Origin: a virus
Taxonomy: Duplodnaviria > Heunggongvirae > Uroviricota > Caudoviricetes
Direction: 5' to 3' (one strand)
DNA: 44,330 nt
Virus record (IMG/VR): IMGVR_UViG_2541047714_000011
Part shown: positions 5,889-6,158 of the stretch, piece by piece
Layout: the number at the start of each line of letters is the position of its first letter
Position numbering within the stretch: the first letter of the stretch is position 1
Program-made: the position numbers and the translations under genes
Notes under the pieces: model-generated
What the model saw: the letters and a program-made list of their open reading frames with translations, nothing else
Told to the model about the DNA's origin: nothing
Database searches by the model: none

Positions 5889-6158
5889 TCAACGTTTTTC
5901 CACTTCATTTTGAATTTGCTTAAGTAGCATATTTGTCTCGTCAAGCCTCTTGTTAATACGGTCAAGGCTTTCTACTAAATCGTTATGTGCATGTGATACT
6001 TCGTAATTTGAGACTGATTTTTTTTCCTCTATCGTCTTTGTCAATCGTTCCCCTGATTGATACATATTGATTAACGATGTAAAAATCACGAGCAAGCAAA
6101 CTACAATGATTGCGCCAGACAAAAATTGTAAAGAACGATCAAGCAATGACACCTTCAT
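5889..6158 (-). CDS. Hypothetical 89-aa membrane-anchored coiled-coil protein
   Basis: Track ORF; one N-proximal TM ([16 protein letters not shown]) and charged helical C-terminus; ATG overlaps the arc stop (ATGA). Confidence 0.5.

Follow-up and report, generated by a model that had tools for sequence, protein, structure and literature searches.

The window analysed here, a stretch of 44,330 nucleotides, carries a P22-like E. coli prophage with an 89-codon open reading frame, ORF89, in its immI region (Table 1). The immI region of P22 is a textbook module that comprises the Arc and Mnt repressors, the sar antisense RNA and the antirepressor. The prophage has mnt, the promoters and operators, most of arc, sar with its terminator, and ant, in the same order as in P22, and the mnt and promoter-operator region (6175-6420) is 93.9% identical to that of P22. 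The divergent genes mnt and arc both encode ribbon-helix-helix repressors. The prophage departs from P22 in the sequence of the arc tail and in a coding cassette of 267 nt: ORF89 intervenes between arc and sar/ant, where P22 has nothing. There are two further differences. The amino-terminal domain of Ant is of the Bro-N type rather than the P22_AR_N type, and sieA and orf59a of P22 are replaced by three other ORFs. An initial reading made without database searches (the sequence-only reading) had placed an 89-codon ORF between arc and a Bro-N antirepressor in an otherwise canonical immI region, and had stated that ant follows arc directly in P22. The ORF and its setting were confirmed, and the P22 record, which lists arc and then sar and ant with no such gene, agrees with that statement. 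To this we add the strand, minus, which had not been given.

Table 1. Features of the immI region and of related loci in the window
Feature	Position	Strand	Product or length	Details
ORF89	5889..6158	minus	89 aa	ATG 6158-6156, TGA 5891-5889; open reading frame list
SD-like GAGGGG	6167..6172	minus		8 nt 5' of the ORF89 ATG, within the arc coding sequence
A8 homopolymer in ORF89	6018..6025	minus		codons E45-K47
arc	6155..6313	minus	52 aa	Pfam Arc E=1.9e-27
ant (antirepressor)	4948..5826	minus	292 aa	Pfam P22_AR_C 1.8e-29, Bro-N 7.6e-20; phrog_245 Ant 2.1e-111
mnt (repressor)	6404..6661	plus	85 aa	Pfam Arc 1.4e-27, Repressor_Mnt 3e-16
Pant with Oarc and Omnt operators, overlapping divergent Pmnt	6325..6381	minus		TTGACA-17-TATATT, 11/12 matches (promoter scan)
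sar antisense RNA	5828..5894	plus		full-length match to Rfam RF00262; 65.1 bits (gathering cut-off 43), E=6.1e-13
sar terminator hairpin	5859..5890	plus		14 pairs (terminator scan)
Psar-like promoter	5792-5820	plus		promoter scan
ORF 1 3' of mnt	within 6639-7835	plus	94 aa	phrog_4231
ORF 2 3' of mnt	within 6639-7835	plus	149 aa	phrog_3556; coiled coil, C-terminal hydrophobic tail; weak 'hemolysin' phrog_937 match
ORF 3 3' of mnt	within 6639-7835	plus	145 aa	phrog_2651; signal-peptide-like N-terminus
Rz	23518-23955			Pfam Phage_lysis 3.2e-35

Direct reading of the sequence verified that the ORF89 start overlaps the arc stop, as had been proposed: the ATG and the arc TGA (6157-6155) share an ATGA at 6158-6155. 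The SD-like element upstream conforms to a motif, GA(G/A)GGGG, that is kept in all cassette-bearing loci, including those with the shorter, 83-aa form of the gene described below (L023, L035 and L037). At its other end, the TGA of ORF89 falls within an arm of the sar terminator hairpin (the 5' arm, as read on the mRNA strand), and the T-run of that terminator coincides with the last ORF89 codons (AACGTTTTTC). The ORF89 stop and the ant start are separated by 62 nt, and the two genes do not overlap. The Rfam match indicates that the sar RNA and its target are intact despite the inserted ORF. A terminator scan of the minus strand from Pant to ant returned no terminator-like site.

ORF89 is, by several lines of sequence evidence, a real gene, and we reject the idea of a chance ORF. 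When its 270 bases were shuffled, 53 of 5,000 permutations (~1%) reached at least 89 open codons in any frame. The other five frames contain 3-9 stops each, in ORF89 and in a divergent homologue alike. The protein matches PHROG 27312 end to end (E=6.5e-61, 203.5 bits), with residues 1-89 aligned to all 89 positions of the profile, is identical to the RefSeq hypothetical protein WP_001555392.1 of E. coli APEC O2-211, and is annotated in identical form, again as hypothetical, in Escherichia phage EC.P3. A HMMER search of 1.84 billion cluster representatives recovered near-identical sequences and one divergent relative of 83 aa with 48% identity; a profile search added two further 83-aa relatives, one of them from Serratia marcescens. 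These three homologues (P0009, P0011 and P0012, from one Serratia marcescens assembly and two other contigs) share 40-49% identity with ORF89, and all occupy the same slot in P22-like clusters of the order gp7/gp20/gp16 - mnt - arc - ORF - ant - tailspike. In each of them the start overlaps arc in an [A/G]TGA and the stop (…TTGAAGCCCC…) lies within the hairpin arm. An alignment scan of GTDB species-representative genomes found no relatives, and a scan of IMG/VR with the divergent homologue found nothing.

The pattern of substitution indicates that ORF89 is under purifying selection. Overall dN/dS values were 0.2-0.5, with 0.29 for the window against locus L005. Between the 89-aa and 83-aa subfamilies, codons 1-51 gave 0.23-0.33, and substitutions in this segment were enriched at third positions (14/7/22 by codon position). 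At a dS of ~0.7-0.9 between subfamilies, which amounts to synonymous saturation, the frame and both overlaps were still conserved between the form carried in E. coli and Salmonella and the 83-aa form. The C-terminal part behaved differently, with dN/dS of ~1 between subfamilies but 0.10-0.13 within the 83-aa subfamily, which argues for two types of coil, of which the 83-aa type is measurably constrained. Our literature search found no study of any gene intervening between arc and ant in P22-like phages and none that names PHROG 27312. Nor did it yield a description of the arc-ORF-ant arrangement; the family itself was already known as PHROG 27312 and is listed as hypothetical in databases.

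The predicted product is simple in its architecture. The sequence-only reading had described an N-proximal transmembrane (TM) helix and a charged helical tail, and both are upheld by prediction. Kyte-Doolittle hydropathy, averaged over 19 residues, peaks at 2.79 (residues 12-30), within a hydrophobic segment of about residues 10-32, and AlphaFold2 modelled a single continuous helix over residues 5-88 (mean pLDDT 83). The TM segment is flanked by 2-3 K/R on its N side and by 4 K/R and 3 acidic residues on its C side. Hydrophobic residues at 61/65/68/72/(75)/79/82/86 follow a heptad pattern through the C-terminal 30 residues (3-4 heptads), and these a/d positions are conserved across the subfamilies. 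Invariant among the homologues are LSGAIIV in the TM segment, IE just after it and a juxtamembrane SG(E/D)RL motif. The only indel that separates the 89-aa from the 83-aa form (P0009, P0011 and P0012) is exactly seven residues long, corresponding to ORF89 residues 52-58; it equals one heptad, so the register between TM helix and coil is kept. ORF89 is predicted to be a bitopic inner-membrane protein in which one N-terminal TM helix leads into an amphipathic coil of ~4 heptads, and the coil probably oligomerises or binds a partner helix. We rejected a cleaved signal peptide or a releasable SAR domain: the TM segment is too long and, at 2.79, too hydrophobic.

Searches for a known function returned little. 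Pfam gave matches below cut-off only (DUF1664, DUF948 and DUF4446), which we read as matches of architecture or composition, and the best match of ORF89 to an annotated PHROG family had E=0.0027. For neither ORF89 nor P0009 did PADLOC return a family at E<=1, and NCBIfam had no match to ORF89. A profile search of the PDB recovered designed coiled coils and similar chains only, at E>=0.017, and a Foldseek comparison of the AlphaFold2 model with BFVD gave 0 matches; a lone helix carries no fold information.

ORF89 is rare. It is present in 14 of 5,426 complete E. coli genomes, always as a single chromosomal copy, and in 2 of 50,697 deposited phage records (EC.P3 and Salmonella phage S.Kent 1-2-1), and we found no ORF of known function that P22-like immI regions routinely carry at this position. 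A 721-nt query spanning the region (5700-6420) matched 756 of the 5,426 E. coli genomes in part or in full, and many of these align in two pieces with ORF89 skipped. In no database searched did ORF89 occur outside the arc-ant slot. Its cassette has a GC content of 35.6% compared to 46.5% for the window.

We compared the flanks of 12 IMG/VR loci, 6 metagenome loci and the genome loci. When loci with and without ORF89 were aligned, the difference began in the last arc codons and ended exactly at TTGAAGCCCC in the hairpin; collinearity with the insert-free loci holds as far as the arc tail and returns from TTGAAGCCCC onward. P22 Arc ends in ESFKKEGRIGA, and prophage arc ends in a variant tail that carries the GAGGGG element. 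At least four unrelated arc N-terminal/operator types flank an identical ORF89, all with the common tail, which implies a recombination joint inside arc. On the other side, five or more ant N-termini adjoin the cassette, among them Bro-N and P22_AR_N types. Beyond mnt, gene content varies by locus. By these alignments, the arc C-terminal tail and ORF89 constitute a small mobile cassette that recombines freely with arc and ant alleles, and the low GC content and varied partners bear the signature of an accessory cassette exchanged via recombination at conserved flanks. As a separate observation, the tail reads DSLKREG(I/V)x(V) wherever ORF89 follows (6155-6190 in the window; L001, L005, L008, L018, L023, L035 and L037). 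A search for its exact pattern in GTDB species representatives hit four unrelated MAGs or genomes, which we read as chance.

Several carriers have a shortened form of the gene. The A8 homopolymer is reduced to A7 in two E. coli assemblies from NCBI and in contigs from Logan (L008-L010; P0005, P0007 and P0008), and the frameshift yields 60-aa products that keep the TM helix and the juxtamembrane motif and lose the coil. The A8 run is interrupted in EC.P3 and L005 (AAAAGAAA and AACAGAAA). The A7 alleles could be heritable decay or slippage. Their presence in some lineages suggests that prophage carriage, at least, does not require the full-length protein. One Logan contig is of a different kind: P0004, of 94 aa, joins a sequence resembling the N-terminus of a 498-aa ORF (window 19492-20988), which we take to be the large terminase, to ORF89 residues 29-89. 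P0004 probably reflects a chimeric assembly or a prophage rearrangement.

From the position of ORF89 downstream of Pant, we infer that it is co-expressed with arc and ant, as the sequence-only reading had proposed. Judging from the geometry of the ATGA junction, its translation would be coupled to that of arc. In a lysogen, Mnt would repress Pant and ORF89 would be silent; after infection, Arc represses the promoter early. The ORF89 protein would accordingly appear in a burst of immediate-early expression from Pant that lasts until Arc shuts the promoter. A view of expression from Pant alone should be incomplete, because late read-through adds transcription. In P22, the antiterminated late transcript reads through the arc-ant region into the tailspike gene (PMC2629481). 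ORF89 shares the strand of the late operon and is located between genes 16 and 9, so read-through of the P22 type should transcribe it. This late transcript would give a second round of ORF89 expression; sar would block only the ant ribosome-binding site. Control of ant itself should be unchanged, because the sar target and terminator are intact and the P22 geometry, with a stop abutting the hairpin, is kept.

Two promoter-like sequences in the region deserve mention. At the edge of the Mnt operator (6325-6330, minus strand), the window and APEC O2-211 read CCTATAATG, which contains a perfect TATAAT, and TTCTCA lies 18 nt upstream of it; the corresponding sequence is CCTGTATTG in P22 and CCTATATTG in another E. 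coli locus. The CCTATAATG sequence may create a second promoter-like site just 5' of arc, whose spacer would be the Mnt operator. We also considered an internal promoter within ORF89 directed toward ant (6044-6017, minus strand; TTGACA-16-AAAAAT) and found it unsupported, as the scan as a whole gave 10 sites where chance predicts 8.2 +/- 2.8. The -35 hexamer of this candidate coincides with codons R38-L39-T40 of the conserved SGERLT motif. Were this promoter active, transcription of ant would escape Arc and Mnt.

We favor the interpretation that ORF89 is a genuine accessory gene on a mobile cassette whose product acts at the envelope of the infected cell, outside the logic of the immI switch, with an exclusion-type function as our best guess; we put the probability of this explanation as a whole at about 0.4. 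The accessory envelope reading follows from the many Arc and Ant alleles that adjoin the gene, from the fact that most immI regions lack it, and from the frameshifted lineages. P22 and most immI loci do without ORF89, and we found no co-adaptation with any single Ant type. The more specific proposal, that the protein excludes superinfecting phages or blocks injection during lytic growth or establishment, is tentative and on present evidence somewhat doubtful. T4 Imm and Sp are immediate-early exclusion proteins. Like them and P22 SieA, which are small inner-membrane proteins, ORF89 is predicted to be small and to reside in the inner membrane, and the early expression of T4 imm and sp from a host-RNAP promoter parallels the timing we propose for Pant. 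SieA differs in having several hydrophobic stretches in its translation, compared to one predicted TM helix in ORF89. P22 SieA is expressed in the lysogen, and ORF89, by contrast, should be off there. With SieA as the query, tblastn across the loci found P22 itself only; no SieA homologue was present in L001, L003, L005-L023, L025-L030 (flanks included) or in the first 12 kb of the window, and P22 SieA did not align with the neighboring 161-aa protein in L008. The lack of SieA in ORF89-bearing loci would be consistent with an envelope or exclusion role, but the insert-free locus L002 also lacks SieA, and its absence may be the norm in E. coli P22-like phages. Searches of Pfam, PADLOC, NCBIfam and PHROG detected no homology of ORF89 to exclusion, defence, holin or spanin families.

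A membrane-based modulator of the host, that is, a small bitopic inhibitor of division or envelope synthesis and thus a functional analogue of P1 Icd, has a precedent in position and is in our judgement unlikely. In the P1 record, icd overlaps ant1 and is annotated as a division inhibitor apparently required for ant expression; Icd targets FtsZ (PMC11897509). Both Icd and ORF89 are small and lie directly 5' of ant in an antirepressor operon, where they share a common promoter and a region controlled by an antisense RNA. However, BLASTP of ORF89 against Icd gave no alignment at E<=100. The translation of Icd contains no hydrophobic membrane-spanning stretch, and the word 'transmembrane' does not occur in the text on Icd in PMC11897509, whereas ORF89 is a predicted membrane protein. 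The overlaps differ too: Icd overlaps ant, while the overlap of ORF89 is with arc, and the sar target lies between ORF89 and ant. It is also quite improbable that ORF89 is a decaying or selfish passenger maintained by its linkage to arc alone. Its rarity, the A7 frameshift alleles in several assemblies and the C-terminal dN/dS of ~1 between subfamilies would fit such a passenger. They are offset by a frame and two overlaps that persist at saturating dS with dN/dS of 0.2-0.5, by the constraint on the 83-aa coil (0.10-0.13), by the retained heptad positions and by an indel of precisely one heptad.

A stop that always lies in the sar terminator arm, a start that always overlaps arc and the confinement of ORF89 to the arc-ant slot in the databases searched might instead point to a regulatory accessory of immI. 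The protein would then tether or modulate Ant, Arc or the prophage repressor at the membrane, or translation up to the hairpin would tune sar pairing and ant translation. We consider this very unlikely: in P22 the arc stop already lies within a few bases of this hairpin, and the insertion thus preserves the geometry; with at least five Ant N-termini and at least four arc alleles there is no co-varying partner; most immI regions work without ORF89; and arc and ant are intact in the frameshift lineages. That ORF89 sets the timing of lysis or assists in it, as an antiholin- or spanin-like product of late transcription, is scarcely probable. The N-terminal TM helix with its coiled coil and the location on the late-operon strand are compatible with it, as is a weak PHROG match to the Rz-like spanin family phrog_214 (E=0.048). 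That match is not significant, however, and there was no Pfam Phage_lysis match. The soluble part spans only ~56 aa, and the TM segment exceeds, as noted, the hydrophobicity of a releasable SAR domain. The stop-laden alternative frames hold no embedded lipoprotein ORF, and the only overlapping ORF on the same strand (38 aa, 5983-6099) has no lipobox. We set aside a spanin or holin role because lysis genes are already present elsewhere in the prophage, at 23.5-24.7 kb: a holin (Pfam Phage_holin_3_1, 2.4e-30) and Rz; the ORF between them has no Pfam match, and we take it to be lambda R-like. The boldest proposal, in which ORF89 adds a membrane layer to immI by tethering Ant, Arc or a repressor or by linking antirepressor output to the state of the envelope, strikes us as most improbable. 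If true, this layer would be an unrecognised fourth protein component of the arc/sar/ant circuit in some phages.

Here a coding cassette is fitted precisely between arc and the sar target; its start would be coupled to the arc stop, its stop lies inside the sar terminator and the control elements stay intact, and ORF89 thus illustrates how precisely phage accessory genes can be slotted into operons. It fits the gene flux of P22-like phages termed 'ant moron' in Villafane et al. 2008 (PMC2629481); the text passages of that paper considered here have no mention of a gene inside the arc-ant transcription unit. Gene flux is to be expected in the immI region, and we see no sign of a new mechanism: ORF89 is a rare add-on and not a new system. 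If it is merely an ordinary accessory gene, little changes. What the family offers is a small, conserved and predicted membrane protein with predictable timing, namely an early burst, late expression and silence in the lysogen. Such timing is typical of exclusion and anti-host functions, which makes the family a cheap and well-defined candidate for functional testing. The isolate EC.P3 carries ORF89, and P22 provides a natural insert-free comparison.

Other small genes surround the region. The three ORFs 3' of mnt (Table 1) stand where P22 has orf59a and sieA. They probably form an operon with mnt and, if so, may be expressed in the lysogen. On the minus strand, between the tailspike gene (2790-4847) and the integrase gene, a hydrophobic ORF of 99 aa (2494-2793) starts 4 nt before the tailspike stop. 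It has no Pfam match and is a candidate for another small membrane accessory gene.
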